This document shows positions 13,377-54,026 of a stretch of DNA of 64,000 bases, piece after piece. A program made the translations under genes and the position numbers. The notes beneath the pieces are model-generated. The model was given only the letters and a program-made list of their open reading frames with translations, did not search any database and was not told the DNA's origin. The first letter of the stretch is position 1, and each line of letters opens with the position of its first letter. This stretch comes from a virus, in the IMG/VR virus record IMGVR_UViG_3300009702_000016, positions 1 to 64,000 of that record. One strand, given 5' to 3'.

Positions 13377-13601
13377 ATGAAAGAGTTTGAGATGGAGATG
13401 ACGAAGGCGTTTGACCGCTATCTAGATGACTATTGCCACAGTATGGAGGAGGGAAGGGAGGATGAAGCAGTTGCCTTTTCATACAAGGCCGAAGCTATCC
13501 GCGACCTGGAGGACTCAATCAAGAGTTCTCTTTGTTCCTCCCTCCTTCGTAAAAAGTCGTCAGGTCTTTTTGCGGAGCGGGAACACCCCCTCCTTTCGTA
13601 G
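13377..13601 (+). CDS. Small hypothetical protein
   Basis: Protein-like helical ORF; its 3' end overlaps the convergent gene by 42 nt. Confidence 0.45.
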   Translation: MKEFEMEMTKAFDRYLDDYCHSMEEGREDEAVAFSYKAEAIRDLEDSIKSSLCSSLLRKKSSGLFAEREHPLLS

Positions 13602-14117
13602 CCTCTCTTCCGCTGCTGGAGACTTTGTCCTCTGCCACTTATCGTAGAGCTTGAGGATGTCCTGTGGCGTACGCATAACTGTGGACTCTTTGACCTCATC
13701 GAGTACGAGAGCAAACTCGTCAAAGCCGTCTGATAGGTCGTAGTACACCTTGTTGAACCCCTTTGGAGAGAGACCCGCAGCATTAGCGTACGCGGATCCT
13801 CCAATCGTGGTCACATAGCTTCTATGCACTCCTTTCCTCTCTAAGAAATCGGAGAAGAACCCAAGTAGGAACAAGGCAGAGTCTCCTGCTTTTCGGTACA
13901 GGTAGAAGCGCTCTAAGTCAGAAGCGGCCTCTCGTGCTTTTGACAACTGGAAAGCCAGAGGCTCCTCTAGGTCGTCCTGTGCGAATGCCTTCTTCGTGAG
14001 CACCTCTACGAGGTAGAACTCTACGATCTGCTCTACAGAGATCCCAAGACGACCTATGGCCGAAGTGACAGCCTCGTAGAAGTAAGACTTAGCAGTATTA
14101 CTTCCGAGGCTCGTCAC
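13560..14117 (-). CDS. Bacterial-type conserved hypothetical protein (recalled from myxobacteria/other proteobacteria)
   Basis: Pattern YLVEVL...EPLAFQL...GDSALFLLGFFSDFLERKGV...Y...GGSAY...VYYDLSDGFDEFALVLDEV...LKLYDKW..T.S...ERLRKEGV, recognised from memory. Confidence 0.7.
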   Translation of the reverse strand: MTSLGSNTAKSYFYEAVTSAIGRLGISVEQIVEFYLVEVLTKKAFAQDDLEEPLAFQLSKAREAASDLERFYLYRKAGDSALFLLGFFSDFLERKGVHRSYVTTIGGSAYANAAGLSPKGFNKVYYDLSDGFDEFALVLDEVKESTVMRTPQDILKLYDKWQRTKSPAAEERLRKEGVFPLRKKT

Positions 14118-14205: not shown

Positions 14206-17200
14206 CTACCTTCTCAGAGCAGCGACTAGAAGATCTACAACATTGAGTCCGTAGGGGTCCAGTCCCTTGGCGTTGGCCTTCTGTACCTCGTTAAGGCGGC
14301 TAACAAGGGTGGATACGTCTCTTTTCTCTTCGTCCGTCTTTTGGTCGTAGTTCCTAAGAAGCTTATCACCGATCTGGAATCCCCTTTCCTCGTTTTCGTC
14401 GGGTTCCGGTTCTTCCTCTCCCTCGTCGAACTCAGGCTCGTCAGGCTCCTCGAAGGGTGCCTCTGGTGGTGCCTCTGGTGGTGCTGGTGGCGCCTCTGGT
14501 GGTGCCTTTGGTAGTTCTTGTACTGGTCGGTCACTGACTATCCGGTCTCCTGATGATAGCGATTCTATCTGGGGGTTGTCACTACGGGCTTCCATGTCCA
14601 GGGCCTTGAAGTAATTGGACATAGCGTTCATGTAGTTTATAACTGAAGCCCTGACCTTGCTAGGGTTATTCTTTGTCAGGAGGGGACTATTCTCCACATA
14701 GGTCACGAGCTTGTCCCTCAGTCTTTTAAGTTCCTTCATCGACAACGACTTATTGATGATTAGTGGTGTATCGTGAAGAGCTTCCGCTACCTCTGATCTA
14801 TACCTTTTTGTTACGCTGCTAAAGTCTTCATCGTATTCCTCTTTAAACTTGTTCTCTACATAGTTCTGTGCCTTTCGAAGGTTGTCAGCAGACCTCCTTA
14901 TCTTAGCACCAGTCCACCTACGAGTTTTCTTCTTCTTAGCGGGGGCTGGAGCCTCAGGAGCAGGAGCAGCAGGAGCTACTGCTGGGGCAGGAGCGGGGGC
15001 TGGTGCTGGAGCCTCAGGAGCCTCATGAAAGAGCTTTACCAGACGAGGAGTTATTCCACCCAGCTTTGCCTTATTCGCTAGTAGCTTGAACGCTTTCTTG
15101 ATAGACTTGCTTTCCCCTGGTCTGCTAATGTAGGTAGAGATAGCAGTGACGACGGCATCTCCCATTTGGTCTAGATTGCTTTCGGCAGCGGTTAAAGCAG
15201 CATGAACTACAGTGTCTCTAAAGTCGTCGGTACTAGTATCCTCCAGGATATTAGAAATAGTTGTAGCTAGCTCGGCCACCATAGAGTTAAAGCTCAAGAC
15301 CTTGAACTTATCATTTTGAGTTAGCTTGTTAGACTTAGGTGCTCTTGGAGGAGGAGCGGTAGGTATGTCCATCGCAAGATAGGCATTTAGCGTTCGTGGT
15401 GTTACTTTACCCCGTTTTGCTTCTCTGACCAGCTGCTTGAACGCCTCGCTTATGATTCTACGGTCTTCTGGGCCATTAAGGTGAGAAGAGATAGCGGACA
15501 TGACATCAGTCACCAGACTGTCCAGATTCTCTTTGGCAGCACTTAGGCCAATCTCCTTTACGGTTTCCTCAAACTCCGGGTCGTTGATCTCCAGGCTCTT
15601 GAAAACTTCCTGCACTAGATGGTACAACTCCCCTATAAAGTTGTGTGCTGCTGCCTCCTCCTTTATAGTTATCTTCTTAGCAGCAGGAGCAGGTGCTGCT
15701 GGAGCCTCAGGGGCGGGTGCAGGAGCAGGAGCTACTGCCGGGGCAGCAGGAGCTACTGCCGGGGCAGGAGCGTTCATCTCTTCATGCGCCTTTAGATACG
15801 AAACGGCATCCTTCTGGCTGATTCCGCTTTGAGCACGAAAAGCTTCCAGACCTCCAAGGTCTGACGCATTTGCTCCCTCGAAGGTAAATCCTTGTTCCCA
15901 GCCTTCGCCAGATTGCGCGATGGCTCTAAGTGCGGCTTCTCCCAAGCCCTCCTTGAGGGAATTTCCTGCATCAACAAAAGTCCTAACTAGAACACTCTTA
16001 TCTTCTTTTCCGGTATAACGGTTGGGTCGATTTTGAGACGTCCCTTCCTCCATTTCTTCTGGACTGCGGCCCGTAGGCCCAGGCATGAAGTCAGGAGCAG
16101 GAGCAGCAGGAGCCTCAGGGGCGGGTGCTGCTGGAGCCTCAGGGGTGGGTGCAGGAGCCTCAGGAGCCTCAGGTGTAGTCGGTGTGTTCTGATCCACCTT
16201 CGAGAAGTAGTGAGCAAAGTCAGCAGCAGTTAGGCCCTCGCCCTCTGCCTCCTTCACCAGGCTATCTGCAACCTTTGACTTTACTCCAGCAGGGAGTCCT
16301 GGGCTTTGTCCTGCAGCAAATGCCCGCATGACATTTTCTACATCCCCAGGCCGGAATACCTTCCTAGTCTTAGCTACAGCACTATGAATGAACTTTTGAG
16401 TCTCCTCGAACTTGTCTCCAGCGGCAGGTGCCTCTGGTTCCTCGTCTAACTCAGGTCCCTCATCGAACTCAAGTTCTGGTGGTTCCTCCTCCTCTGGTGG
16501 TTCCTCGCCTAACTCAGGTCCCTCATCGAACTCAAGTTCTGGTGGTTCCTCGTCTAACTCTGGTTCCTCTTCCTCACCTAACTCGGGTCCCTCTTCCTCC
16601 TCTTCCTCACCTAACTCTGGTTCCTCTTCCTCACCTAACTCTGGTTCCTCTTCCTCACCTAACTCTGGTTCCTCTTCCTCACCTAACTCGGGTCCCTCTT
16701 CCTCCTCTTCCTCACCTAACTCTGGTCCCTCTTCCTCCTCTTCCTCACCTAACTCGGGTCCCTCTTCCTCTTCCTCCAGAGTGGGCTCAGTGGGAATAGG
16801 AGCAGCCTCCTCAGCCTCAGGAGCCTCTTCAGCCTCAGGCTCAGGAGTGGTTTCCTCCTCTAGGTCCTGGGAAGCTAAATCGATGGCGTGATCGAGCAGG
16901 TCCTTGTCCCAGTTTCCGTAGTTTAGCGCTCCCTTAATGTAATTCGCGATCTCTTCCGAACTCTTTCCTGCCGCTGATAGTTTCCTTGCCTTTCCAACAA
17001 GGCCCATGTAAGTGGACTTGAGCATTGGTAGCCAGTTGGCGGGAACACCCTGCAGTAGCTCGATGATGTTTTTCTGGCTCTTTGTAAGGTGTCCTACTGG
17101 GTTATGAACAGCCAGCTCGACAATCTTCTTCAGAAGATCGGAGTCCAGATCTGCTCCCTTTTCTTCAAGGACCTCCACTACGCGATCAACTGATACGTCT

Positions 17201-20200
17201 TTGCCCTCCTTCAACATGGAGGGAAGAACGGCATCTTGGACAAGAGAGTAGGCCTTTTGTATCTTCTTCAAGTCTGAAGGATCTTGTCCCTTCATCAACG
17301 TGGCAATGTCTCTCCTCGTCGGGCTCTTAGTTGAAGGAGGAGGAGTGACGGTCTTCTCCTTCACTCCGTAAAGCGCGTCAAGGACAGCTTTCTTGCTGGA
17401 GTTTAGCCTACGCTTTAACTTGTCACGTTTAAGTCCTGTCGCCTTGTTAGCCTCCAATACCTTTTTGATTGAAGAGGAGATCTTACTCTCTGACTCTTCT
17501 CTAGGAAGATTCTCCTTTTTCAGCGGAACGTACAGATGATGGTATGCGTAGTTTACCAGCACTTGGCTGGCATCTTCATGGTCAGGGTCCCATAGCTCCA
17601 GGACAATCCTAGAGTATGCACTGGAATCCTCCTCTGGGATGCTGTTCTTTTCCGCTAGGTCATCAATGTCGTCCTGGTTGAAGGGAGCATCTTTGCCCTT
17701 GCTGCTACTACTGAACATGTGGGCGATCCCCTCTGTTCCCTTGTAGTTCTCAATTCCCTCCTTTCGGCTCAGCCCGTAAAAGGCCCTGTGCAGAGCATCA
17801 AAGATGTCCTTGTTCCCCTTGTTCTTATCCCTTTGCATTAGGTTTGAAACCGCACCTTGCCAGGACAGGCTGGGATCCTTTTCTGCCTCCTCCTCGACCT
17901 GGGCAATGGCCCGAAGGACCAGGTTGTAGGTTGCAGTGGCCGTTTCAATGTTAACGGATCGGGGCTTCTCTCCTGCCTTCTCGGCCCGCTCCTCTTCTTG
18001 TTCCCTAGCCCTTGAAATCCTGTCCTTTCTTACACTCCTTGTAACTCCCCTGAGGGTGTCAGAAAGATCCATACCTCCTTGACTGATTTGGTAATCCCTA
18101 GCGGAAGGGAATGCGTACAACCTCTTAAGAAGAGGGGAGAAATCCCATTTTTCTGTGCTTTCGTCGTACAGGTCTTGGTGCTCATCCATGAACATCAGAA
18201 GACGTCCGAGAGACTCCTTCAGGAGAGCATTAGGAGAAGACTGCTGAGACTTCCTAAGGTCTTCCTCTGTTGATGACCCCTTAGATAGAGGGTAGATCCA
18301 AGGAGCAAGCACGGAGGGGTCCGAGCCTCTCATTCCCTTGACGTTCTTAAGTTGGTTTCTTAGCAGTTCTCTTGCCATGTTTTCGTCCTCTTCCTCTTCT
18401 TCCACGGGATAAGGAACGTGGAGAGGGCTTAGATCATAGATTCCTTCTGTGACCTTTAGGTCGGGTCTCTTCGTGTCAAAATAGGACTTTATCGCACGAA
18501 GAACACCCGATAAGTTGAATACAGATTTGGCCTTAGGAGAGGGAACAAAGTCATGTATGCTGTGGCCTGTGTACCTACCTTTCTCTCCCTCCTTCGTGTA
18601 CATATGGGAGCTTAACTCGGAGAGAAGAGCAGGCATTGCAGTCTGTCTTTCCTCCGCGCTAAACGTGCTAGATAGGCTATTCTGGATGTAGGAGAGGAGG
18701 TCCTCGTACAGACTAGTTTCCCTTCCAAGGGCAGGTCTTCTAAGTTCTTGGTCTTCGTCCCCCTCTTCCACAGGGTAAGGAACGTATAGAGCACTTAGAT
18801 TGTAGACTCCATCCTTGTGCTTTAGATCGGGTCTCGTGTCAAGATAGGACTTTATCGCATGAAGAACATCCGACAAGTTGGATATAGAGGATTTAGCCGT
18901 AGGAGAGGGGGCAAAGTCATCTATGCTGTGACCCGTGTAGCCGTCTTCCTTCGTGTACATATGGGAGCTTAACTCGGAGAGAAGAGCAGGCAGTGCCTTA
19001 ATTTCCTCTGAGTTGAGAGGGCTAGCTAGGTTATTCTGGATGTAGGAGAGTAGGTCCTTATACAGACTAGTTTCATCCTTAGATTTTTTGGGGATGAGAT
19101 AGCCTTCCTCACTTTTGACGTCCTCAAGAGGAACAACGTAATCCCGAAGATAGGACGACTGCTGGCTCAAGTCATCGTATTTCGGAGGCTCCTCCCCCTT
19201 TTCTCTGGCTTTTTCTGCTTCATCCAACCTGTGATCAAACTCTTTCTGGGCTTCTTCCACCTTCTTGATGAACGCCTTTTGCCTTTCCTCGGACTCCGCT
19301 GCAGCTTCTTCCTGCCTCTTTTGAACCTCCTTCTTTCTCTCCTCGCTCATCTGTATGAACTCGGGCGTCTTTTGCCTTTTCTCTTCCTCCCTAAGAAAAT
19401 CTTCGTGGGATGGAATTTGTGGAATCTCCGATTTAGTAGAACGAGGAACAAAAAACATATTGGCCAACGATGTCTCTTGGCCGTCATAATGCTCTTCCAC
19501 GTAGTTATGAAGCTTTTCAAGAAGATTCACACGCCAGTGTTGAGGCAGACCCTCTAGCACTGCGTTTTTGTCCCTGTCGTACCTTTCCTTGTCCTCTTGG
19601 TACTTTCTACGCATGGCCTCCAGGCCTTCGCTTTCGCTCATATACTCAGCGCGAAGACTCCTAGCTTCTTCTTCATACTCTTCTTCGCTCTTTTCTGATC
19701 CCTTGAGGTATGAGTCAGCTAGATTCCTAGTTTCCTCATCTGTTATCTGTCCTTCGGCAGTCAGAATCGACGTAAGGGTTTCAGTTACATTTTCTTTTGC
19801 TTCATCGCGTTCTGCTCGTGCTCCCTCTAGGTCTGACTCAAGCTTCTTGACGGAATCAGAAAGTTCCTGACTAGCCTCCTTAAGTTCCTCTTCCGTAAAG
19901 TGTGTTACTCCTCCGATTTCTAGGTTTCCTTCTTCATCGTACACGTCTTCGTAATTCGCTACGATATCTGCAACCCTATCTCCACTGGAGGAACCTAGTC
20001 TCTTTAGAAGGGTATTTACATCTTTGAGTGCTCCAAAGTACTTGACTCGTCCCTCCCTAACAGACTTATCTTTGAGGTTCTCATTGTTCTCATACTTCTT
20101 GTTCTCCGTTAGCTGTGCGACCGCGTCACGTAAACGAACAAGATTGTCTCGACCACTAAACTTGGAAAGCTCCGCCTGAGCGGCTGTACGTTGATCTACG

Positions 20201-23200
20201 GCAGCCGCAAGAGCCTCCTCGCCTCTAACATTGACGTAGTGGGAAACTAGCTTTCTTTCTGTTTCATTACGCTTGTTCGCATTATTCTCAACGATTTGAA
20301 TTTTATCCTGTAGGGCCGTAAGCTTTTCTTTGATTTCGGCCCCATCGGTACGCAGGTCCTCTCGGAGACTTTTGATCCTGTTTACTAGCTTCTTGTTCCG
20401 CTTATCATAGACAGCGGAGGCTTTTTCCTCGGCCTTTCGCTGCTCTCTCGTTGCCTTGTTCAACAGGCTGCGAAGAGGTCGCCTGTCTCCCTTCGCTCCC
20501 TGCTGCTGTACCTCCTCCATTAGCTTGTAGAAGCGAGAGTCATCTTCTTCCTTCTTAAGGGAGAGCTTGTTGTTCAGCTTCTCAAGGTCAGCCTCTAGCT
20601 TCTCCCTCTCCTTCGCCTTCTTTCCAAACTCAGGAAGGGACTTGAGCTTCTCCTCAATCTCCTTTCTGGATTTGGAGGATTCTTCATCCTCCTTGGTAGT
20701 GGGAGCGATTGACTGCTCCAGCTTGTTGAACAGAGTTATCTTTCGGAACTCTTCCTCTCGGTCCTTCACCTTGACTGGCTCGATGAACTTATGGGTTACG
20801 CCATTCTCCTCGTCCATGACGGACCTTCGTGCGTCACGGCCAAGCTGGGCAATAGAATCCCTCTGGTACCAGTCCTTGAGAATGTGAGCGTACTTGTCGC
20901 GTAAAGAGGGCTGCTTTCGGACCTCTCTAGTCTTCTTTCGAAACGCACGGGAGAAGGTATCGAGAGCATCTGCGTAAGTGTCCTTAATCCAGCGAAGAGC
21001 AACGGAATCCTCGTCATCCTCGTCGAATAGAGAGTACTTCTTTCCGTACTCATTGGAAGCCATCTGTCCTATGCGATCATAGAGGGAGAGTGAGGACAGC
21101 TGCGCAATGGCATCGTCATCAAGTTGTGCAGGGGCGTTCTTTCCTCTCTTGTAGGGAAGGTCTGACGTTCTGAAAGGTCCGGGGATAGTCCATACCCACC
21201 GTAGGATGTTCTCCTGCTCTGGTGGGATCTTGGCGTCCCGAAGAGTCTCATTGAGGAGTTTCTCTGTGGCTATATTCTTTTCCCCCTCGTTCTCCTTGTT
21301 GCTACTCAATGACCAAAGAATTGGGTCATCCGGCATGCTGTCGCTGCCCCCCATATTCTTTGCCATGACGCGACTGAGAGGCAAGATGGTTTTGATCAGA
21401 GAATCTGACCAGTTGTCATCCATCTCTACTGCCTTTTGCATGAGAAGGGAGAGAAGCTTCTTGTAGGCTCTCCTCTTCATCTTCTTGTAATGGCGAGTAT
21501 TATTTCCGATATTGAGCTTCTTTTGGATCTCTAAATCGGTCAAAGCCGCAGTCTCTGGGCTTTGAGTTGTAGAGATTCCTAAAGCAGCGCTAAGATAGCT
21601 TATCTCCTCACTATCAAGTTCTGAGTTAGGGTCTTTAAGCACATCAGCGATGACTCCAAGTAGGACCTTCGCGTTTTCCCGTGCCTGAGCGGCCTCTTCT
21701 TCGTCTTCTATGTTGGCTACGTCAGCACCGATTTGGTCAATGACATTGACCATATCCGACTCCTCGCCTTCACCCCCGACATTTGTCTTTCCTTCTAGAT
21801 CCTGGTACCTAGTCACATTGACATAGTCGATGTAACTGATAGAGATTTCATCTCCGCTGTTCTCGGGGGAGAAGTAAATACGTCCCTTAGACGTGTCTAG
21901 TCTAAACTCGTCGCTTGCTAATGACGTTATGTCGTTCCCGCCAAGGCCCGCTATCGTAACGGTCTCCCCAATCAGACTCGTACTAAAAATAAGGGACTTG
22001 CTGCTTACTCTGAAGAGGTAGTCGGTTGCAGCCAGTCCCTCACTGAACTCCTTCAGCTTAACATTGCGATTTTTGGTTACTTTCCGAAGTTCCTGCCCAT
22101 CCTCTAGAATGATCTTCAAGTCAGGAGTGGCCCTATTTCTAACGGGGTCCCCCTTCTTTCTAAGCGAGATATACCCCGTAGGTACTGTGTTTCCCTTGGG
22201 GGATGGAAGGACTTCAAACGGAGTACCCGCCGCCCTGTAGACATTTCCACCTCTTCCCTTGATGGTGAGGCTTCCTAGGTCGATCTTTCCCGAGGGGAAA
22301 TCAATGTATCCTCCCCCGTCAGGAATCACTGCTTCCTTGTTCATGGAGCGGGCAGAGCTACCCTTAACAATCCCTTCCTTGAGCTTGTTATGCAGGTCTC
22401 TAAGAGCCCGAGTTGCAGTAACCTTGACAACTGTCAGCAGATTGAACTGTTTCCCTGTTTCGGTATGAATTGCTTTTGGATTGTACTTAAGAACAGAGGA
22501 TCGGAATACATCCATGAGCATGGAGTGCAGGTCTACTAGTGACACCTGGGAGTCGTCAAACACCTTACGGACCTTATTCCAGATCCTCTTTTTATCAGCA
22601 GCTTCCTCTGCCTTTGTCTTTTTCTTCTTTCCCGTTTGATCGTAGTACGTGTACCCATTTGTAATGAGCCTATTGAAGTACCCAGTAAAATACTGGTATA
22701 GGTCAGTAGACTCCCTGTCCATCTTTTTACTTGCGGAACTGACCTTAGTGAGATAAGAGAATGCCTCTGGGGATACCGTTCTGAAGTCTGACATGCCAGG
22801 TATGGCTGCCATGATGTCTTCATCTACTTTCCTCTCAGTAGAGCGGTACACCTTCTCTGTGATGATCGATGCCAGAGGCGTCAACACCGCCATGTCAGGA
22901 GCGACATTCTTTTCCGCAAACGCATATGCCTTTTCCTTAGCTTCTGGAGTTGTTGCGTTTGACAGAAGGTAAGTAAAGCGGAATAGGCTGGAGTCTTCAG
23001 GAAGTAGCGTAGTCTCGGACGCCCTAGAGTTCCTGATTTCTGCTGCTTCGTTTATGATAAGAGGTACGATTTCGTTCAACACTACTTCGGTATCGGGGAA
23101 CCGAAGGATATCCATCCATAGTTTTTGTGCGGCTTCCTGGATCTTGACTACCCTTTGGATAGCCTCCTCCTTCTTGTCCTTCATCGTATCTTTGCTAGAT

Positions 23201-24036
23201 TCGTTATCCTTACTCGGTGCGTATTTTACCTCCACCGTCTTTCCGTTGTCCTCATCTTTAAACGAGAAGGAAGAGGACTCTGGATTGAATCTGTACTTTA
23301 TGTTGTAGGTCTTAGTTCCGTCCTCATTCACTAGAGCCACGGAGACTTTAGACTTTGGCTCCACATCGAAGTCAAGATCTACTTTTCCATCACTTACAAC
23401 GTACCTTTTGGTTACCGTTTTCCACTTAAACCATTCCTTTCCAAGGCTCCAGGTTGACGCGGGCCAACTCTTTCCCTTGTTCCCCTTTCCCTTTTTCTTT
23501 CCTTTTTCCTTTCCTTTGTCGTCCTCTCTTTCGCTGTTACTAAGCTCTTCCTCGGAAGGAACGTTAGTGCCTACCTCGGCATTTTCTGCCTCTTCCTCAA
23601 CTTCCCTGGTATCCTCAGCAGCGCTGTCTTCTGTCCAATATTCCTCATCATCCTCCTCATCAGCCTCATCAGCCTCATCAGCCTCGCTGTCGACGATTAG
23701 GTTGTAGTTTAGGGTAACCTCCTCCCCTCCATAAAGGTCTTCCTTAAGCTGCAGCCTAGTCTCACCTTCTTCATCCTCACCTAGGATTGTGAAAGATTCA
23801 AGACCAGCCCGATTCTCCCCTTCTACCACAGCTAGAAACTTGGTAACACTTGGTGTATCAGGATCGGGAGCCTCGATAGTTAGAGAGTCAAGGTCAGCGT
23901 TGTCTGGAAGCTGAACAGCCAATACTCCGTCGTCCCCTACAATTCCCTCTATGGAACCTTTTGCTTGGGACTCCTCTTCGTTCGCCTCTTCCCCTTCAGA
24001 TGCGGTAATGACTTTTGTACGCCTAACGTTCTTCAT
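14206..24036 (-). CDS. Giant 3276-aa multidomain protein: sigma-70-like r2/r4 segments, coiled coils, duplicated domains, acidic and Pro/Ala linkers; probably virion-associated
   Basis: Uninterrupted 9.8-kb ORF at the distal end of the head block. See findings for domain evidence and a possible readthrough to 14119. Confidence 0.85.
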   Translation of the reverse strand: MKNVRRTKVITASEGEEANEEESQAKGSIEGIVGDDGVLAVQLPDNADLDSLTIEAPDPDTPSVTKFLAVVEGENRAGLESFTILGEDEEGETRLQLKEDLYGGEEVTLNYNLIVDSEADEADEADEEDDEEYWTEDSAAEDTREVEEEAENAEVGTNVPSEEELSNSEREDDKGKEKGKKKGKGNKGKSWPASTWSLGKEWFKWKTVTKRYVVSDGKVDLDFDVEPKSKVSVALVNEDGTKTYNIKYRFNPESSSFSFKDEDNGKTVEVKYAPSKDNESSKDTMKDKKEEAIQRVVKIQEAAQKLWMDILRFPDTEVVLNEIVPLIINEAAEIRNSRASETTLLPEDSSLFRFTYLLSNATTPEAKEKAYAFAEKNVAPDMAVLTPLASIITEKVYRSTERKVDEDIMAAIPGMSDFRTVSPEAFSYLTKVSSASKKMDRESTDLYQYFTGYFNRLITNGYTYYDQTGKKKKTKAEEAADKKRIWNKVRKVFDDSQVSLVDLHSMLMDVFRSSVLKYNPKAIHTETGKQFNLLTVVKVTATRALRDLHNKLKEGIVKGSSARSMNKEAVIPDGGGYIDFPSGKIDLGSLTIKGRGGNVYRAAGTPFEVLPSPKGNTVPTGYISLRKKGDPVRNRATPDLKIILEDGQELRKVTKNRNVKLKEFSEGLAATDYLFRVSSKSLIFSTSLIGETVTIAGLGGNDITSLASDEFRLDTSKGRIYFSPENSGDEISISYIDYVNVTRYQDLEGKTNVGGEGEESDMVNVIDQIGADVANIEDEEEAAQARENAKVLLGVIADVLKDPNSELDSEEISYLSAALGISTTQSPETAALTDLEIQKKLNIGNNTRHYKKMKRRAYKKLLSLLMQKAVEMDDNWSDSLIKTILPLSRVMAKNMGGSDSMPDDPILWSLSSNKENEGEKNIATEKLLNETLRDAKIPPEQENILRWVWTIPGPFRTSDLPYKRGKNAPAQLDDDAIAQLSSLSLYDRIGQMASNEYGKKYSLFDEDDEDSVALRWIKDTYADALDTFSRAFRKKTREVRKQPSLRDKYAHILKDWYQRDSIAQLGRDARRSVMDEENGVTHKFIEPVKVKDREEEFRKITLFNKLEQSIAPTTKEDEESSKSRKEIEEKLKSLPEFGKKAKEREKLEADLEKLNNKLSLKKEEDDSRFYKLMEEVQQQGAKGDRRPLRSLLNKATREQRKAEEKASAVYDKRNKKLVNRIKSLREDLRTDGAEIKEKLTALQDKIQIVENNANKRNETERKLVSHYVNVRGEEALAAAVDQRTAAQAELSKFSGRDNLVRLRDAVAQLTENKKYENNENLKDKSVREGRVKYFGALKDVNTLLKRLGSSSGDRVADIVANYEDVYDEEGNLEIGGVTHFTEEELKEASQELSDSVKKLESDLEGARAERDEAKENVTETLTSILTAEGQITDEETRNLADSYLKGSEKSEEEYEEEARSLRAEYMSESEGLEAMRRKYQEDKERYDRDKNAVLEGLPQHWRVNLLEKLHNYVEEHYDGQETSLANMFFVPRSTKSEIPQIPSHEDFLREEEKRQKTPEFIQMSEERKKEVQKRQEEAAAESEERQKAFIKKVEEAQKEFDHRLDEAEKAREKGEEPPKYDDLSQQSSYLRDYVVPLEDVKSEEGYLIPKKSKDETSLYKDLLSYIQNNLASPLNSEEIKALPALLSELSSHMYTKEDGYTGHSIDDFAPSPTAKSSISNLSDVLHAIKSYLDTRPDLKHKDGVYNLSALYVPYPVEEGDEDQELRRPALGRETSLYEDLLSYIQNSLSSTFSAEERQTAMPALLSELSSHMYTKEGEKGRYTGHSIHDFVPSPKAKSVFNLSGVLRAIKSYFDTKRPDLKVTEGIYDLSPLHVPYPVEEEEEDENMARELLRNQLKNVKGMRGSDPSVLAPWIYPLSKGSSTEEDLRKSQQSSPNALLKESLGRLLMFMDEHQDLYDESTEKWDFSPLLKRLYAFPSARDYQISQGGMDLSDTLRGVTRSVRKDRISRAREQEEERAEKAGEKPRSVNIETATATYNLVLRAIAQVEEEAEKDPSLSWQGAVSNLMQRDKNKGNKDIFDALHRAFYGLSRKEGIENYKGTEGIAHMFSSSSKGKDAPFNQDDIDDLAEKNSIPEEDSSAYSRIVLELWDPDHEDASQVLVNYAYHHLYVPLKKENLPREESESKISSSIKKVLEANKATGLKRDKLKRRLNSSKKAVLDALYGVKEKTVTPPPSTKSPTRRDIATLMKGQDPSDLKKIQKAYSLVQDAVLPSMLKEGKDVSVDRVVEVLEEKGADLDSDLLKKIVELAVHNPVGHLTKSQKNIIELLQGVPANWLPMLKSTYMGLVGKARKLSAAGKSSEEIANYIKGALNYGNWDKDLLDHAIDLASQDLEEETTPEPEAEEAPEAEEAAPIPTEPTLEEEEEGPELGEEEEEEGPELGEEEEEEGPELGEEEEPELGEEEEPELGEEEEPELGEEEEEEGPELGEEEEPELDEEPPELEFDEGPELGEEPPEEEEPPELEFDEGPELDEEPEAPAAGDKFEETQKFIHSAVAKTRKVFRPGDVENVMRAFAAGQSPGLPAGVKSKVADSLVKEAEGEGLTAADFAHYFSKVDQNTPTTPEAPEAPAPTPEAPAAPAPEAPAAPAPDFMPGPTGRSPEEMEEGTSQNRPNRYTGKEDKSVLVRTFVDAGNSLKEGLGEAALRAIAQSGEGWEQGFTFEGANASDLGGLEAFRAQSGISQKDAVSYLKAHEEMNAPAPAVAPAAPAVAPAPAPAPEAPAAPAPAAKKITIKEEAAAHNFIGELYHLVQEVFKSLEINDPEFEETVKEIGLSAAKENLDSLVTDVMSAISSHLNGPEDRRIISEAFKQLVREAKRGKVTPRTLNAYLAMDIPTAPPPRAPKSNKLTQNDKFKVLSFNSMVAELATTISNILEDTSTDDFRDTVVHAALTAAESNLDQMGDAVVTAISTYISRPGESKSIKKAFKLLANKAKLGGITPRLVKLFHEAPEAPAPAPAPAPAVAPAAPAPEAPAPAKKKKTRRWTGAKIRRSADNLRKAQNYVENKFKEEYDEDFSSVTKRYRSEVAEALHDTPLIINKSLSMKELKRLRDKLVTYVENSPLLTKNNPSKVRASVINYMNAMSNYFKALDMEARSDNPQIESLSSGDRIVSDRPVQELPKAPPEAPPAPPEAPPEAPFEEPDEPEFDEGEEEPEPDENEERGFQIGDKLLRNYDQKTDEEKRDVSTLVSRLNEVQKANAKGLDPYGLNVVDLLVAALRR
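16431..16780 (-). repeat. Coding tandem repeats (PELGEEEE / PELEFDEG) in the giant protein
   Basis: Repeated TCACCTAACTC(T/G)GG units at 24-33 nt spacing on the + strand. Confidence 0.9.
18397..19074 (-). repeat. Tandem duplication of a ~105-aa domain in the giant protein
   Basis: ETSLY.DLLSYIQN...PALLSELSSHMYTKE...AIKSY.DT.RPDLK...VPYPVEE at ~19074-18763 and ~18720-18397, with clear DNA-level similarity. Confidence 0.9.
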
Positions 24037-24046
24037 AATCGAACTC

Positions 24047-24682
24047 TCAGTGTGAGCTTAAGTTTGGAGCCGGGGAGGGAGGAGGTGTTCCTCCAGCAGC
24101 GGGGGAAGAGGCCGTTTCATTAAGGTCGAGGTCTGGTGATTCATCACCAATTCCTTCCTCTTCTTCCTTGCCTGACCCCACTTCCTTTCCAGGCAAGCTA
24201 TGGGAGACAGGAGTTGTCTTTTCCTCTTTGTGCGCCCGTCCAGCCAATGCGGACAACATCTTTCCTAGCTCCTGTACCTCAGCTATCTTTTGCGACTCCT
24301 CCTTGAGAAGCTCAGCTAGCTGGCCAAGAGCCGAGGCCTTGATCCCTGGTAGATCCTGCTCGTCCACCGACAGTATCTTCTCTAGCTCCGTTCCTGCCTC
24401 GGTTAGCTTCGACATCAGGCTGTCCGATGCCTCTGCAAGCCCACTGACTAACTTCTTGAAGGGATGTTTCTTAGGAAGAGTCCGCATCAAGACTAAGAAC
24501 GAATCCGCGTTGTCCTCAAGTTCTGACATGGCAGAGTCTGCTTTGTCGAACTTTTTAGTAACAGGAGCATCGACTCCGTTCGGATAAGAGTTAGCAATAG
24601 CATCGATTACCCGAGCTACCCGTGGTCTAATCTCTACTGGCGACCTTCGCTGTACGATCTTCAGCTTGTTCAGGACAGACAT
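24047..24682 (-). CDS. Hypothetical helical protein
   Basis: Tightly packed in the head block. Confidence 0.7.
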   Translation of the reverse strand: MSVLNKLKIVQRRSPVEIRPRVARVIDAIANSYPNGVDAPVTKKFDKADSAMSELEDNADSFLVLMRTLPKKHPFKKLVSGLAEASDSLMSKLTEAGTELEKILSVDEQDLPGIKASALGQLAELLKEESQKIAEVQELGKMLSALAGRAHKEEKTTPVSHSLPGKEVGSGKEEEEGIGDESPDLDLNETASSPAAGGTPPPSPAPNLSSH

Positions 24683-24685
24683 TTC

Positions 24686-27673
24686 TTAGCTTCCTGGGGG
24701 AAAGTCGCGATCAACAGAAATGACATCACCCCTATCAGGCGGGCCGCTCTCCTGATCATATGAGGGTCCTTTAGTGTAGGGACCTGTTGGACTGCCGTTG
24801 CTTGGAGCATTCTTCATTTGGTTAGTAATGGAGTCTGCGTTCTTGTCCTCTGGCATCTCATGCACTGGAGCAGTAATAAGCTCAAATCCATGGACTGAGG
24901 TTGGAAGTTCCTTTCGCAAGGTCTTTGGCATCGTGCTATGAACGTATAGCACCGTATCACCCTTTGGTCCTAAGGAACTCCGCACATTCTTTACTCTTGG
25001 GTCGCCCTTTGTCTTTTTCTTCAGCCTTGTGAGTGCTGCTTCTATATCGTTATCTTTTTCTGATGCGGGAGGTCCTTCTTCCTTTCTATTGGGAGAACTA
25101 CTGAAGGTAAGTCCGGGGGCTGTCTTACTTTTGATGTCCTCCAGTACCTCATTGTCTGTGTCATCCTCAGCACTGTCTTCAGAATCGACAGCAATGTAGG
25201 TGTCCTCTCCTTCCACAGACGGTCCATGCTGCTCCTGTGCCATCGGAGGAGCCATCATTGGGGGCGCATCCATTGGAGCCATCATGTGAGGCATGTCCAT
25301 CGGAGGCATGTCCATCGGAGGTGCCATCATTGGAGGAGCATCCATTGGAGCCATCATGTGAGGCATATCCATCGGAGGTGCCATCATCGGAGGAGCATCC
25401 ATTTCAGGTGGATCCAAAGGAAGGTCCCCAGGGAAACGACCAAAAGGAGGCGGAGGAGCCTCTTCGCCCCCGTCAAAGGTGTCGGGTTCCATTGCTTTCG
25501 GATCGATTCGGACCAGATAAACTGTTCCTTCCCCACTGTCCTTAACGTAGCCAAATGCGTTTTCCGTGGGAGGAATAGCACCTGAGTCTACCATGGGCGC
25601 AGGGAGGGAAGGGGGCGCCGCAGGTGCCACTGCATCTTCTAGCGCCCTCTGAGCCCATGGAGGAAGAGACCCAGACGAAGAGGGAGTCATTGTCTTTTCT
25701 AGTATGTTCTTTAGCATGGGATGCGGAGGGGTTGGCCCTTCGCCGCAACCGCAGCCAACTCCTTCTCGGATCCAGGGAGATGCGATACGGATCTCCTTAC
25801 CCGTGTCCAGGCTTCGAACAACGTACGAGATCTTCGATGCCTTTCCAGTCTTTCTGCCCGCTACACGAACAAGTTCTACCTTTACGTTAGCTCCCGTATC
25901 GGGATCAATCGTAGACCAGTGCGTTCCAATGTCTGGGATAATTCCAATAGCACCGCTTGCGTAGTGCATTACGTCTGTCTTCAGTGCCACGAGGATGTGC
26001 GCTCCCACTCGCAAGTGGTCGGAGACCTCCTCGATCCTAGAGCGAAGGGAATCCGTTGCAGACAGTAAGGAAGCGGCTCTTTCCAGGTCGGATGCGGCCT
26101 TCGGGCTGTACGTACTGCGTGCTACTCTCTTCCTTGTTGGCGCGACTGGGATGTAGGTTAGAGCCAAACGTGCCGAAGATGACCGAAGGAGAGGAAAAGA
26201 GTTCCAATTGTATACCCCGAAATCCTTTTCGATGGGAGTCTCGCTGTCCTCCAGCAGCTCAAAGATTTCGATCTTATAGTCGAACTCTTCTCGCACCTCC
26301 TGTAGGAAGAAGTTGATATCTTCCTCCCTGTCGAAGGGGACATCGTAGGTGAAATGCTTCGTCTTCTTGGCGTTCTTTTTGCGGAGGAAATCTCTGAACT
26401 CTGGATCCCTCACCGCATTCGCAGTAAATGTTACGCGAATTACAGAGCTTGCAATCTTACGTGTTGCTGCTTTTCTTGGCATCTGTTCACCTTTGCTTAG
26501 CATCTCAATCAGAACTGGGTCCGCAGCTACAATGTGTTTTCCGCTTATCAAAACGGGCTCATCTGCAACAGTATATACCCTGTAGTCGTAGGTTCCTTTT
26601 CTATCTGAGCGGGAATAGCTTGATAAAAGGTCCTCTAATCTGTCATCAACGATATTCCCATAATAAAGGGCGCCTGTTCTCCGCTCAGCTTCCAGGAATA
26701 AACTACGGACAAACGGATCTGTTTCTGCTATTTCTTCCAAGGAAGAGAGGAATTTTTTGCTGCTTATTTTCTTGATTCCGTTAACTAGGTTCGCTTCTTT
26801 CAGCATAATGAAGCTCTTGCACTTAACGTAGCTTCCCCGACTACGATCAAAAGAGGGGCACTCTTCTTTGTTGAACCTACAGAAAGCAAAATGTTCTGTT
26901 AGTCGTGTCTCCTTTTCTGGCAGCTGATGATCAGGACAGTCGTCTCTGGCCACTTTCCAATTACCTTGTGCTCCCATGTAGGCAGGGATTAGACCCTCTT
27001 CCTTGACGTAGTACTGCTTGATCTTATCGTTGACGTCTTCGACCTTCTGCGCGGCGAAGTGGCTGGACCTACCCCGGAGAAGGGAAGAGACTTTCAGCAA
27101 GATACTATGCGCAGACTTCTCGTTTGGCCTGAGCCTGGTGATCGCACGACCAAGCAGGGTGGACGTCTTACCAAAGCTCTCTACCCACTTTCCTACGACC
27201 TCCTTGCGGATGTCAGGCCAGAAATCGTCCAGGTACTTCCAATAGTTTCCTATGCTTCTCAGAAAGGAGGATGTCTTGGGGCGCCCAACAGAGTTCTTCC
27301 TCACTTCCCCTAGAGTAAACTCCTCTGCCTTAGCATAGATCGTATAGGACTTTTTGACCATGTCTATCGCATAGTCTAACGACATCCTTAGCTCTTCATC
27401 ATCCGCCTCCGGGGAAGATACTGCCTCCACTGTGGCAGCCCGGATGCGGTCAAGTAGGTTCAACTGAGAACTTACCTTGGGTAGAAGGCTATCCTCATTG
27501 ATCATGTTCCAGAACTTTTGCAGGTTCTCTAGGTCATCCTGGTACCCAACAACCACAGAGGCTAAAGTTCGTACTCTAGCTCCTATGCTTCTATCGACTA
27601 GATCGCTCCATTCGCTCTCAGAAGCCCCAAGAAACGCCATCGCAAGATCTTCTTTCTTATCCGTAATAGGCAT
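24686..27673 (-). CDS. 995-aa hypothetical multidomain protein with Met/Pro-rich repeats
   Basis: TGATG-coupled start; Cys cluster; PPMDMPHMMAPMDAPPMM repeats. Confidence 0.8.
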   Translation of the reverse strand: MPITDKKEDLAMAFLGASESEWSDLVDRSIGARVRTLASVVVGYQDDLENLQKFWNMINEDSLLPKVSSQLNLLDRIRAATVEAVSSPEADDEELRMSLDYAIDMVKKSYTIYAKAEEFTLGEVRKNSVGRPKTSSFLRSIGNYWKYLDDFWPDIRKEVVGKWVESFGKTSTLLGRAITRLRPNEKSAHSILLKVSSLLRGRSSHFAAQKVEDVNDKIKQYYVKEEGLIPAYMGAQGNWKVARDDCPDHQLPEKETRLTEHFAFCRFNKEECPSFDRSRGSYVKCKSFIMLKEANLVNGIKKISSKKFLSSLEEIAETDPFVRSLFLEAERRTGALYYGNIVDDRLEDLLSSYSRSDRKGTYDYRVYTVADEPVLISGKHIVAADPVLIEMLSKGEQMPRKAATRKIASSVIRVTFTANAVRDPEFRDFLRKKNAKKTKHFTYDVPFDREEDINFFLQEVREEFDYKIEIFELLEDSETPIEKDFGVYNWNSFPLLRSSSARLALTYIPVAPTRKRVARSTYSPKAASDLERAASLLSATDSLRSRIEEVSDHLRVGAHILVALKTDVMHYASGAIGIIPDIGTHWSTIDPDTGANVKVELVRVAGRKTGKASKISYVVRSLDTGKEIRIASPWIREGVGCGCGEGPTPPHPMLKNILEKTMTPSSSGSLPPWAQRALEDAVAPAAPPSLPAPMVDSGAIPPTENAFGYVKDSGEGTVYLVRIDPKAMEPDTFDGGEEAPPPPFGRFPGDLPLDPPEMDAPPMMAPPMDMPHMMAPMDAPPMMAPPMDMPPMDMPHMMAPMDAPPMMAPPMAQEQHGPSVEGEDTYIAVDSEDSAEDDTDNEVLEDIKSKTAPGLTFSSSPNRKEEGPPASEKDNDIEAALTRLKKKTKGDPRVKNVRSSLGPKGDTVLYVHSTMPKTLRKELPTSVHGFELITAPVHEMPEDKNADSITNQMKNAPSNGSPTGPYTKGPSYDQESGPPDRGDVISVDRDFPPGS
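25240..25402 (-). repeat. Coding Met/Pro repeats (MDAPPMMAPPMDMPHMMAP)
   Basis: Repeated CCATCGGAGG and CATCCATTGGAGCCATCATGTGAGGCAT blocks on the + strand. Confidence 0.85.
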
Positions 27674-33339: not shown

Positions 33340-33869
33340 CGACTTAGTTTCCAGTACATTTCAAGGTCAGACTCATGCTCCCTCAAATAACTAGACATCT
33401 TTTCTAGTCTCTTGGGTGAGGTGTGGCAGAGTGCTCTTTTCATAGCAGAAAGAAGAAGAGTGGTCATCTCGTATGGATCGTTAAATCCTGCTTCTAGGAG
33501 ACGGTCACTTACATACTCCTCAGTAGAAAGTAAAGAGTTGGCCGCCTTTCCGTGCAAGCGCAACTTGCCAAAAGAAGCACTAACTTCTTGCCCTCCTCCC
33601 CCGCCTAGCTTCTTAGCCAAAAGATTCCCAACAAGTGATCCCAGTTCATGACCTAGGCGAGCCCAGACATCATCAGGAATCATCTTTATGGCCTTCATGA
33701 GCATCTCTGCGGCTCTACCTGCCGTCTTCATGTTAGGCACAAGCAGAGAGGCAGTGCGCTCTTTAGCCGTAGGAATTATTTCTTCCTCAAGATCCACCTG
33801 TAGAAGGTCCTGTATCTTAGCAGATAGAACGATAAGTTTAACTGCTGCCTTTTCTTCCTTACTAGTCAT
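33336..33869 (-). CDS. Hypothetical protein
   Basis: Coupled ORF; contains RTAS, KTAG and VSAS motifs. Confidence 0.7.
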   Translation of the reverse strand: MTSKEEKAAVKLIVLSAKIQDLLQVDLEEEIIPTAKERTASLLVPNMKTAGRAAEMLMKAIKMIPDDVWARLGHELGSLVGNLLAKKLGGGGGQEVSASFGKLRLHGKAANSLLSTEEYVSDRLLEAGFNDPYEMTTLLLSAMKRALCHTSPKRLEKMSSYLREHESDLEMYWKLSR

Positions 33870-35287
33870 ATTCTGTCCACCAGATCCTGCGCTTTTTGAA
33901 ATGTCTTAGCTTCGGGGTCCACGAGCCCTTCGGACTGCACAGACTTCGAATACGTTGCGATGTCACTGAAAGTACCAGGACTCCCAGGACCAAAGGCGTC
34001 TACATCCTCTGGCTCTTCTTTTTCTTCTTGCTCTGAAAAGTCCAGAAGCTTGGCGATCCTATTAGACGCCTCTAGTGCACCACGGCTTTCAGACTCCTTT
34101 CGAACATAAGAGAGTTTCTTCTTAGAGGTCGAGGGAAACTTCTGACTGGTCACCCTGTAGTAAATGTCGAATATACCTCTACCGAGGTTCTTTGTTTCGA
34201 TTACGGACAGAAGTCTCTCTGAATTTTGGGTAGCGAACGTGATCTCGTCGTTCTCTAGTCCCTCAAGCATGCCCTCCCTTCTTGTGTCCCGTATCCTTAC
34301 TTTCAGATGGTTATTCTTGTCTGACTTCACCTTGACGGGGATTGTAACATCTCCAATCTGGAGATGAGGAGAAACCGAGGCTGTCTTTCGGTGTCTGTGC
34401 AACTCTATCTTAACTGGAGGCTCTTCCGCGTTGAGAGTCACATGACCCACTGTCCAAATGACAGGAGTAATTGGAAGACCCTGTACTGGTGTCTTGACGT
34501 ACTCTAAAGTCACATGCGGGTTAAAGTTCTTGTGTATGAACTCCGTACTCGCAAGACCTGGGAGATGGTACTCAAGAAGGTCCAGGAGAGTGTCATGGAA
34601 GTCCATTAGACCCTGGCTTTCTGCGAGAGCCACCCACGGGTAGGTTCCGTCCTTTTGCTGATTAGGAAAGGTGAAAGACCTTTCTAGGCGTACGTCGAAG
34701 CTTCCGACTCTGCCTGCTGCTTTCTCGATCAGTCCTTCAACTTCCTTTCCTTCCTCTTTCGTAATCGAGGGGAAGTGGGCGACGGTGATATGCGGTTCGT
34801 ACTCTAGAGAGTCGGACAAGGGAAGAAAGCTTTGAATGTTCGTCGGGACTTCTACTCCAACGATTGCGCTAGGAGCCGAGGCGGCATACCGATCAATCCT
34901 CATCTCCTTAGTCTTCGATGGAACGATCATCATAAAGCTAAACTCTGCGTTCTTGTATCTGCTGAAGGATCCTCCGGTTTGGATCTCCGTGACCCCATCT
35001 ATGACCCCAGTAACCTCTTCTCCAACAACCTTGAAGGTGACACTGGACCCTACTTTAGCCCTCATGTAACGATACACATGCTCATTTCTGGCTTGTGCCG
35101 CTTCTTTCTCCTCCTTGAAGACAAAGGTAACTCGCAGTTTGTTCCTCTGGTACGCGGTCGAAACGAGCATTCCGATAAAGCTTTGCCCTCCAAAGCTCAT
35201 GTGCACACTTTGACCACGATACGACCCTAGTATTCTAGAAGCCGACTCCGCGTCATTAGCTGTATCAGCGGTGCGAAAGAGAAACAT
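33866..35287 (-). CDS. Multidomain protein with a central 2H phosphoesterase domain (LigT/2'-5' RNA ligase/Acb1-like fold)
   Basis: Two HxT motifs about 90 aa apart: YEPHITVAHF and FNPHVTLEY. Confidence 0.82.
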   Translation of the reverse strand: MFLFRTADTANDAESASRILGSYRGQSVHMSFGGQSFIGMLVSTAYQRNKLRVTFVFKEEKEAAQARNEHVYRYMRAKVGSSVTFKVVGEEVTGVIDGVTEIQTGGSFSRYKNAEFSFMMIVPSKTKEMRIDRYAASAPSAIVGVEVPTNIQSFLPLSDSLEYEPHITVAHFPSITKEEGKEVEGLIEKAAGRVGSFDVRLERSFTFPNQQKDGTYPWVALAESQGLMDFHDTLLDLLEYHLPGLASTEFIHKNFNPHVTLEYVKTPVQGLPITPVIWTVGHVTLNAEEPPVKIELHRHRKTASVSPHLQIGDVTIPVKVKSDKNNHLKVRIRDTRREGMLEGLENDEITFATQNSERLLSVIETKNLGRGIFDIYYRVTSQKFPSTSKKKLSYVRKESESRGALEASNRIAKLLDFSEQEEKEEPEDVDAFGPGSPGTFSDIATYSKSVQSEGLVDPEAKTFQKAQDLVDRI

Positions 35288-36456: not shown

Positions 36457-38085
36457 TCAAGGTTCAATATTTAGCATCCATTTGGCTTGTCCACAGTCCC
36501 AAACCTTGTGGCATCCCTTTTTGTACCCAGAGTTTCTCCTGAACCTCATTCTGTGATATGAGTTACCCTTTCCATCAGTCCACGCGAAACTCAAACTGGT
36601 GTTCTCTAGGGTCCACCCCAGGCTTGACAGATAGGTCCCGTCGCCATAACGAAGATCTACAAACGTCTGAACCTTTTTAGGCTTCTTGTCCCTTATCGCA
36701 TGCGCAAGTAACTTGCTGTATCCTCCTACGACTGAGAGGTGGGGCATAGAGCAGAACCGGCTGACATTCAATATCCCGTCTTTTATGGACTTGAACTTCA
36801 CCTGTAGAGAAGATACTGCCTCGTCCTCGTAGAAAAGAGAATACACAGTGCCTTGGCCCTTTCCCATTAGATGGTACTTTTCGAACATAACTGGGCTGTC
36901 CTGTGCTACTTTCGTTTTTCGCGCAAACACTCGGGTGTTTTTCCCCAGGAAGTTCAACAGGATGGATCGACACACTTCTGGTTTGTTGTTCAACTCATCT
37001 TCCCTAAAGAAGAAGGAGCGGTATCCTTGGGCAAGGTAAGCTGCCCGTTTCTTCTCATGGTACCTTTTGTCCTTTATTACGGCGTCAGAGTGCCAAAATA
37101 GTCCATCACATTCGACTACTAGCTTCTTGTCGTGGACAACGATATCCGGGATGTACGACGTACCTGCAAACTTACGATTTCTTGTGACCTCCAGGCCCTC
37201 TTCTTCGAGCCACCGAGCTACTCGGTTCTCCAAGGTCCAGGATGCAGGACTGTAATCCTCTAGGAGATTTATGGCCTCCTCTTCTGTCCTTCCCTTAAGA
37301 GCTACCAAAACTGTGGAGTAGGACGAACCGATTTTCTCCGCATACTCTCTCTGCGTCATCCCCTCTATCAAAGTCATCGTTCCATTTCGGACTCGTTTCT
37401 CAACTACCTCCGACTGGCTAGGAAAGAAAACCTTAATCGGATCCTCCTCCAGACTGGAAAACATCCAAGAGGAAGTGTGAGTAAAGGTTCGTCCGTTTCT
37501 GGTGTCCAGCACCTCCAGCATGATGTCCGACGACTTATCGCTCTTGTGCACACTGAGAAGAGTGAGATGAGGAGCGACAGCCTCCAGTCGTATCCCAAAC
37601 GCCTCCTGGCTGCTCGCTGGAGGCAGCCCTAGCCTTTGGGAGAGCCGTCCTCGGCTTACTCCCTGCTCCTTGGCTATCCTCGACAGGGAGACGCCCCGTG
37701 CCCACTGACGGATGAGATCCCTGTCCTCCTCAGACCTGCCCTCAAGTAGCTCCTCTAGCGTGCTTGCCTTGGGCTGCTTGACACTAGAGATCAAGTCCCC
37801 TGACAGCATAACGTGGTTCTCGCCCTTCTCTGTGTTCAGGAAATGCAGGTAGACTTGCTTGTTTCCTCCCTTCGTATGCCTGACTTCCTGGCGAGTGATA
37901 CGAAGATGAGGAGCTAGAAGGTTTAACTTGAACTGGAAGATCCCTGGGTCCCCTTTTGCTGGGATACCAAGTTCCTTCCTTACTCTCCGTGTTGGGATTC
38001 CCAACTCCCTACCAAGATTTGACAGGGTTTCTCCTTTTGCCCATGAGTATAGAAGAGACTTCTTTTTCTCTAAGGCTAACTTCAT
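36457..38085 (-). CDS. Hef-like free-standing (homing) endonuclease: N-terminal HTH repeats, DUF559/Vsr-like PD-(D/E)xK nuclease, C-terminal GNAT-like domain
   Basis: YIPDIVVHDKKLVVECDGLFWHS...GYRSFFFREDEL; FARK...YHLMG...SRFCS...VVGGYSKLL...TFVDLRYGDG...VWDCGQAKW. Confidence 0.78.
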   Translation of the reverse strand: MKLALEKKKSLLYSWAKGETLSNLGRELGIPTRRVRKELGIPAKGDPGIFQFKLNLLAPHLRITRQEVRHTKGGNKQVYLHFLNTEKGENHVMLSGDLISSVKQPKASTLEELLEGRSEEDRDLIRQWARGVSLSRIAKEQGVSRGRLSQRLGLPPASSQEAFGIRLEAVAPHLTLLSVHKSDKSSDIMLEVLDTRNGRTFTHTSSWMFSSLEEDPIKVFFPSQSEVVEKRVRNGTMTLIEGMTQREYAEKIGSSYSTVLVALKGRTEEEAINLLEDYSPASWTLENRVARWLEEEGLEVTRNRKFAGTSYIPDIVVHDKKLVVECDGLFWHSDAVIKDKRYHEKKRAAYLAQGYRSFFFREDELNNKPEVCRSILLNFLGKNTRVFARKTKVAQDSPVMFEKYHLMGKGQGTVYSLFYEDEAVSSLQVKFKSIKDGILNVSRFCSMPHLSVVGGYSKLLAHAIRDKKPKKVQTFVDLRYGDGTYLSSLGWTLENTSLSFAWTDGKGNSYHRMRFRRNSGYKKGCHKVWDCGQAKWMLNIEP

Positions 38086-39292: not shown

Positions 39293-39485
39293 TTCGTTTT
39301 CTCTTGTTAGAACAAAGTTGTAGTGGTTGTTAGACTGGTTTTTGTTTGGGAGAAAACTTGTGATTTCCTTAAAGTAAAACTTAGACTCGCTTCGATTGGG
39401 TCCTAATGAATACATCAGGGTAAGACTATAGGGTTAACATAATGTTGCTGAAGATTAGTGTCTTACTTCTCAGAAGAAGTAATAG

Positions 39486-53626: not shown

Positions 53627-53893
53627 GGACCGCCGAAAAACCCAATGATTTCAACAACCGTGTCAAGGGAAGTAGTGATCTTTTCTCTATAAAAAAATCG
53701 TCAATGATTTCAGTCACTTACAACTTTTTTTGCGTTCGATGTCGTTTTTTTCCTTATTTGGCAAACCTGAATTGTAAAAATGAGTTACTCACTCAGTAGC
53801 TCGTTCAACCCATTTAGGGAGGCCCGGGATCCAATATTCTATCAATGTTATTAACTACCAACTAGTCCGGCTACTCCCCGCTCCCCGCTCCCT

Positions 53894-54025: not shown

Positions 54026-54026
54026 A

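Follow-up and report, generated by a model that had tools for sequence, protein, structure and literature searches.

The window, a stretch of 64,000 nucleotides, covers the first 64 kb of a virus record of 164 kb, which CheckV rates as 42% complete. On its minus strand it carries a block of head genes for terminase, portal and prohead protease as well as for a major capsid protein and a head structural protein. The closest relatives of the capsid were complete genomes of 388 to 424 kb. Near the end of this terminase-to-capsid block lies a giant open reading frame, as the first-pass annotation had reported, and the peptides quoted from it were found at the residues given for them. The landmarks of the block are as follows.

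13560-14117, minus strand: 185-aa gene directly after the giant gene (8 of 8 loci examined).
14206-24036, minus strand: giant open reading frame of 3276 aa.
38174-39415, minus strand: major capsid gene of the PaBG/Lu11/Motura type, a marker of the head block.

A Logan contig of the probable source run covered positions 18963 to 24800 with one substitution and no gap, indicating an intact frame, and at the corresponding position a second assembly record encoded a product of 3305 aa; one contig contained a joint of 1264 bases, which was disregarded. In a close relative (84%; L002:8852-18034) the giant gene occupied three frames through single-base insertions, one of them at an A-run; since a neighboring gene was also split, this is probably a sequencing error. 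Several other features of the window were recorded. A head-block protein with a 2H phosphoesterase domain (PF13563, E 3.5e-12) and leader-like motifs on both sides is encoded at 33866-35287 on the minus strand. Inserted beside the capsid gene (36457-38085, minus strand) is the gene of a 542-aa protein that resembles a mobile homing endonuclease, having repeated helix-turn-helix (HTH) units and what is probably an endonuclease domain. The 241-aa protein at 50736-51461 (minus strand), whose gene lies a short way upstream of that for the large terminase subunit, is probably the terminase small subunit; its HTH scored 91% against a region-4 profile. Tandem repeats of 26 bp and 59 bp at 53889-54141 lie where two divergent blocks are separated by a stretch without genes and mark a possible origin or packaging region.

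A word-indexed homologue search with the giant protein gave no match, and its family was revealed later by an exhaustive search with residues 380 to 1100, which returned 14 proteins, mostly of 2000 to 2800 aa and with identities of 24 to 29%; genome searches added three more members. The orthologues (2071 to 2814 aa) are 23 to 29% identical, and synteny of the giant gene extends to at least 15 uncultured jumbo phages, with the same order of surrounding genes in all eight loci examined. Its identity of 23 to 27% compares with 57% for the median core gene. No cultured phage matched the giant protein in searches that included PaBG and Vibrio phage GR7B, and its sigma module had no match in these two phages or in three more distant records. 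The product of the adjoining 185-aa gene has cellular homologues that are 31 to 46% identical, one encoded two genes from rpoZ (L172) and another labelled Polyangia; it is possibly a partner of the giant protein or a host-derived transcription factor. The Polyangia-labelled homologue and its genomic setting point weakly to a myxobacterial host.

The giant protein was divided into the following parts, all on the minus strand and given from the N terminus.

23995-24036: basic N-terminal leader ending in I-T-A before S, followed by an acidic stretch (motif and charge comparison).
23701-23931: residues 36-112, beta-module copy 1 (hhalign 98.5%, E 2e-15, to the outer module of the insert).
23212-23424: residues 205-275, beta-module copy 2 (hhalign 89 to 95% to other copies).
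22375-22737: residues 434-554, sigma domain 2, regions 1.2 and 2.1 to 2.4 (VIA-align, profile scans).
22480-22533: residues 502-519, region 2.2 helix (residue audit, gp55 register).
21805-22371: insert replacing sigma domain 3 (two nested beta-module copies within residues 563-742).
21712-21810: residues 743-775, acidic region-3.2-like linker (hhalign).
21424-21711: residues 776-871, sigma domain 4, copy 1 (hhalign, structure match).
20932-21228: residues 937-1035, second region-4-like segment (54-column alignment).
19537-20709: residues 1110-1500, charged and poorly conserved spacer (conservation, composition).
17587-18789: residues 1750-2150, second conserved block with no fold assigned (conservation).

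When an AlphaFold model of residues 430 to 1070 (pLDDT 69) was compared with 48,161 chains, the best match was domain 2 of FliA (Z 8.1, rmsd 2.6, 85 residues aligned). All 13 rows covering model residues 1 to 127 (protein residues 430 to 556) were sigma or sigma-like chains, including sigma70, SigA, SigB, SigE, sigma32, pro-sigmaK and the AR9 holoenzyme. The first-pass annotation had placed region 2 at about residues 497 to 552; the sigma domain 2 fold was indeed found there, but the domain begins earlier, near residue 434, with a region 1.2-like helix (nucleotide 22737). By sequence alone, region 2 was weak (5%, E 0.007, in a profile comparison). Sliding windows over residues 1 to 2475 peaked only at residues 391 to 590 for region 2 and 716 to 915 for region 4. 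Neither Pfam, PHROG and NCBIfam nor a PDB sequence search gave a significant sigma match for the giant protein of the window, and with PF04542, PF04545 and the NCBIfam models no family member was above the cut-off, the best being single members at E 0.005 to 0.03 to SigK and RpoD models. Foldseek searches with multi-domain models of the giant protein gave no match at E ≤ 0.001. The sigma assignment of regions 2 and 4 was thus upheld by structural and profile-profile comparisons, but not by curated models or by Foldseek.

Residues 743 to 866 or so had been likened to sigma regions 3.2 to 4, and this was confirmed over residues 743 to 871. The family profile of residues 742 to 875 matched region 3.2-4 of group 1 to 3 sigma factors in hhalign (86%, E 4.7e-6), compared with 0.2% for a control with a reversed alignment. 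Adding the acidic linker raised the hhalign score from 25.8 to 38.5, and the linker residues had low pLDDT values, as linkers should give. For a model of residues 735 to 1075, the top row was the sigma chain of a Streptomyces RNA polymerase open complex (Z 7.1, rmsd 3.6, 86 residues aligned), and sigma chains made up about 21 of the best 50 rows. The hydrophobic core of domain 4 and the basic residue at position 588 were mostly kept, and the base-reading positions R584 and E585 were replaced in a variable recognition helix. A second region-4-like segment had also been proposed. Residues 937 to 1035, where the best-conserved motif of the whole family (EN-I-LR-W) is located, did align in register over 54 columns (E 0.002 against copy 1), but the score of 16 to 17 did not beat column-shuffle maxima of 21 to 24. 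The segment was absent from the structural rows listed for the model of residues 735 to 1075; its Atlas features (0.83 to 0.84) served as a lead only.

Structural Z values of 6 to 8 are middling and common for helical domains, and an HTH alone is not diagnostic, since the terminase-small-subunit-like HTH also passed the region-4 profile. Among the core families compared with broad region 2 or region 4 profiles (141 of 150 families), only the stand-alone sigma and this HTH scored above 47%. The sigma reading draws its strength from the selection of the same family by both domains, placed in sigma order; domain 2, linker and domain 4 in that order are diagnostic of sigma. A chance resemblance, in which a generic helical bundle happens to precede a generic HTH, would account for the 91% score of the terminase-type HTH, the lack of a family-model match for the window protein and Foldseek E values above 0.001. 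It is highly improbable in view of the 13 of 13 sigma or sigma-like rows for residues 430 to 556, the position-specific peaks in the right order and the linker signal. These results indicated that the giant protein contains a very divergent bacterial-type sigma module that is conserved in its family.

An audit of region 2.2 in 12 family members indicated that the core-binding signature D..Q[E/D] was not kept. Position 403 was acidic (D or E) in 12 of 12 members, position 404 was L or V, position 419 was F or Y, and position 410 was acidic in 9 of 12. In contrast, Q406 was kept in a single member, versus 26 of 30 bacterial sigmas, and an acidic residue at 407 likewise in 1 of 12, versus 24 of 30. 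The promoter-melting aromatics, described earlier as degenerate, proved to be so: across the family Y430 was not kept in strict register, and W433 and W434 were conserved in neither register. Two residues that we take to be parts of the A-11 pocket in the sigma70 structure, F419 and a basic one near position 423, were mostly kept. As judged from the alignments, the giant protein fails the strict sigma70 signature, in ways partly found in a working phage sigma.

This pattern, with core-facing acidic residues kept and Y430, W433 and W434 lost, might also be expected of a virion-delivered decoy that occupies the clamp helices and flap of the host polymerase, displaces the primary sigma and shuts off the host while opening no promoter; the two region-4-like units could then compete for the flap. 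We regard such a decoy as unlikely. It leaves the first phage transcription unexplained in a lineage whose relatives show neither a polymerase nor an excess of host-type promoters, F419 and the basic residue near 423 are mostly kept, and gp55 of T4 melts DNA without the W-dyad.

The insert of about 190 residues between domains 2 and 4, already described as rich in beta structure, was resolved into two nested copies of a 75-residue beta-module, an outer copy at residues 563 to 601 plus 707 to 742 and an inner copy at residues 600 to 700. Some orthologues have an optional extra copy. The insert fold resembles domains of phage necks, baseplates and tailspikes (Z 6 to 7.8), and the module recurs in a protein of the head block.

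40203-40418, minus strand: beta-module in the 234-aa head protein (phrog_16710; hmmsearch iE 8e-6), whose gene (39924-40628) lies between the scaffold and major capsid genes.

Because the outer module is interrupted by the inner one, its ends should adjoin, and domain 2 would thereby stay beside the linker, as in two-domain sigmas.

Outside the sigma module, conservation in two flanking blocks (residues 200 to 400 and 1750 to 2150) equals that of the sigma part. The first 105 residues of the second block are duplicated at residues 1655 to 1755 (pair 1655-1755 and 1773-1877, 69% identical over 106 residues; region 18403-19075), a duplication that most orthologues are without. The spacer at residues 1110 to 1500 is, from its composition, probably a coiled coil, and the C-terminal third of the protein consists of tandem repeats rich in Glu, Pro and Ala. 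The matching conservation of the flanking blocks, the presence of the virion-type beta-module in four to five copies and the loss of Q406, E407 and the melting aromatics could all be reconciled with a vestigial sigma fold that serves as a structural or DNA-organizing core protein, its HTH units gripping DNA or guiding ejection without engaging any polymerase. We consider this unlikely. Family members that are about 25% identical still share all of domain 2, the 3.2-like acidic linker and domain 4 in this order, acidic residues are conserved at the clamp-facing positions 403 and 410, and we know of no role for a region 3.2-type linker outside polymerase.

The N-terminal leader provided a link to the virion. 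A [K/R]xAS motif is common to the capsid, scaffold, protease and portal proteins, and it occurred 15 times in 21 head-block proteins, with 2.2 expected, although the four proteins that define it contribute 6 of the 15; in 31 nonstructural proteins it occurred 4 times, with 3.1 expected. Within the first 30 residues, [K/R/I]xA[S/A] was present in 9 of 13 N termini of the giant family, versus 3% of other sequence windows, and in 13 of 13 members the net charge was positive before and negative after the leader alanine. The leader is thus a candidate capsid-loading and head-protease site. A leader-like motif was found internally only once, at residue 1283 in the spacer, and was not conserved among orthologues; a polyprotein model, in which internal cuts would free the sigma, was unsupported, the internal sites being without conservation. 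Together, the head-type leader, the module common with a head protein and the late-block position give indirect support to virion delivery. TTATCT sites of the late type upstream of the giant gene, in the same block, would also suit an ordinary intracellular factor that boosts late transcription or closes earlier classes in the same cell and is never packaged. We consider this quite improbable, given that all orthologues carry the head-type leader with its charge switch, that the beta-modules are of virion type and that two stand-alone sigma-like genes are already present.

The lineage has three promoter-like classes and three sigma-like genes, the giant gene and two stand-alone genes of the window phage.

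G000:68607-69830 (L001:895-2115): stand-alone RpoD-like sigma of 407 aa, one copy in each relative.
G000:154890-155963 (L288:891-1961): 357-aa homologue of PaBG gp112 (phrog_19229), candidate second stand-alone sigma.

The RpoD-like factor has an intact W-dyad and ends after region 4.1, with no 4.2 recognition helix; its gene adjoins SSB-like and RecA-like genes, as that of PaBG gp118 does. PaBG gp112 has been flagged as a possible sigma (PMC7412058), and its 357-aa homologue, which has a four-cysteine insert, matched region 2 weakly (4%, E 0.011).

Class 3 (GTTATCT[A/T]) precedes structural genes, and class 2 (CTGTAAA) precedes replication genes, among them those for helicase, polymerase and an SSB-like protein, in several cases at a distance of 8 bases from the start codon; each is identical in all genomes, that of the window included. 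In the window, sites of these two motifs include 39830 (minus strand) and 59582, 61442 and 12751 (plus strand), among others. Class 1 is an element of 17 to 18 bp with 17 to 27 copies per genome (G002, G004, G011 and G005), mostly in the noncore region and mostly on one strand. Its upstream box, roughly from -23 to -13, is variable and is followed by [G/C]AT[A/G]nTA; the element has no -35 box and shows no conservation upstream of -24. The upstream box is phage specific, being AACCCTGCC, AACCCTGGC, AACCCTTCT or CAAAGTCC. In three genomes class 1 precedes the same orthologous genes, including an rIIA-like gene and a gene of 241 to 266 aa, the product of which was considered as a sigma and found not to be sigma-like. 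Class 1 was seen only in relatives and was not found in the window record, which is 42% complete and lacks most of the noncore region. From its position and gene content, we infer that class 1 is early.

Class 1 varies between phages, whereas classes 2 and 3 are constant, and identities are lower for the giant protein (23 to 29%) than for the two stand-alone sigma-like proteins (35 to 50% and 44 to 68%). In these few genomes, a variable class 1 fits a variable giant factor. Since both stand-alone sigma-like genes mostly lie downstream of class-2 sites, any pairing of factors with classes is tentative, and a host primary or alternative sigma might read class 1, because A-11 and T-7 are kept. 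Host-type -35/-10 sites were at chance level in the intergenic DNA of three complete relatives (11 versus 9.9, 6 versus 8.2 and 8 versus 8.2). No multisubunit or single-subunit RNA polymerase was found in three complete relatives, nor was a T7-like or double-barrel polymerase that could read class 1 found in the relatives searched. An Alteromonadaceae MAG carries, besides one rpoC, a divergent second copy (L208, G020:C122) that probably stems from a contaminating contig. Relatives in which no phage polymerase was found, and whose promoter classes are unlike those of the host, lend genomic support to a redirection of the host polymerase.

The giant protein may be carried in the virus particle and direct host RNA polymerase to phage promoters, which gives partial support to the first-pass annotation and its suggestion of a giant, possibly virion-delivered sigma-like factor or sigma decoy. 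The favored explanation, a virion-delivered sigma for the host polymerase, is held at a little less than even confidence, its packaging, cleavage, ejection, binding and promoter pairing being deduced rather than observed. A late-made internal head protein with a divergent sigma70-family factor in residues 434 to 1035 would enter the prohead by means of its basic N-terminal leader and then be cut behind the alanine. It would leave the capsid together with the DNA and dock on host core RNA polymerase, where domain 2 would contact the beta-prime clamp helices, domain 4 would sit on the beta flap and the acidic linker would reach into the active cleft. Initiation would follow at phage promoters without a -35 box, the likeliest targets being the 17-bp class-1 elements, and the beta-modules would be placed where sigma domain 3 would touch the upstream box. 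A fuller version, in which the packaged sigma reads the 17-bp promoter from the first minute, a capsid-type module replaces domain 3 and the protein heads a cascade of three sigmas and three classes, is more doubtful. Against a virion-delivered sigma stand the loss of E407 and Q406, Y430 out of strict register and a variable domain 4 recognition helix. One or two host promoters could also start the cascade without visible enrichment, and, with no internal cut site conserved, a protein of about 360 kDa would need to pass out of the virion in one piece.

To our knowledge, phage transcription begins either at host-like promoters read by the host holoenzyme or with a virion-carried polymerase, and no description of a virion-packaged sigma was found in the part of the literature covered by our searches. 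If the proposal is true, a specificity factor carried alone in the virion would be a third route to the start of phage transcription. It would also explain start-up without a polymerase or visible host-type promoters, independently of the sigma in use by the host.

Compared with sigma70 factors of groups 3 and 4 (FliA/sigma28, SigB, SigE and SigL), and with regions 3.2 to 4 of groups 1 and 2, the giant protein has the same domain 2 and domain 4 folds in the same order. It also has the acidic linker, the D403, L404 and F419 positions and the region-4.1 signature. Unlike these factors, it holds its sigma within a protein of 2000 to 3300 aa, with nested beta-modules in place of domain 3, and it lacks Q406, E407, Y430, W433 and W434. 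A candidate second domain 4, the location among head genes and the leader also set it apart.

We know of no report of T4 gp55 as a virion protein. This working phage sigma for the host core is, in a manual register, also without Q406 and the W-dyad. It contacts the clamp helices through E70, D74 and E77 (PMC7892883). In the manual register these residues correspond to positions 403, 407 and 410, and two of the three contacts (acidic 403 and 410) are kept in the giant family, which is without the equivalent of D74. The giant protein differs from gp55 in size (gp55 has 185 aa), in the Y430 equivalent, which gp55 has, and in domain 4, which gp55 does not have. Profile matches of domain 2 to gp55 or to the stand-alone sigma of the same phage were not significant. 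AR9 gp226 and phiKZ gp68 are likewise phage proteins of large size and divergent sequence that contain a sigma-2-like domain (AR9 holoenzyme chain, Z 7.2), but they serve a phage-encoded nonvirion polymerase, and none was found in the lineage of the giant protein. The types of PaBG gp118 and gp112 are both present in the window phage as its stand-alone 407-aa and 357-aa genes. The N4 virion RNA polymerase (vRNAP), crAss-like RNAP, phiKZ vRNAP and T4 Alt are very large proteins of early transcription that are packaged in the head and ejected. Neither DxDGD nor single-subunit polymerase motifs were conserved in 12 giant orthologues. Whereas the N4, crAss-like, phiKZ and T4 proteins are polymerases or modifying enzymes, the giant protein would supply promoter specificity only.
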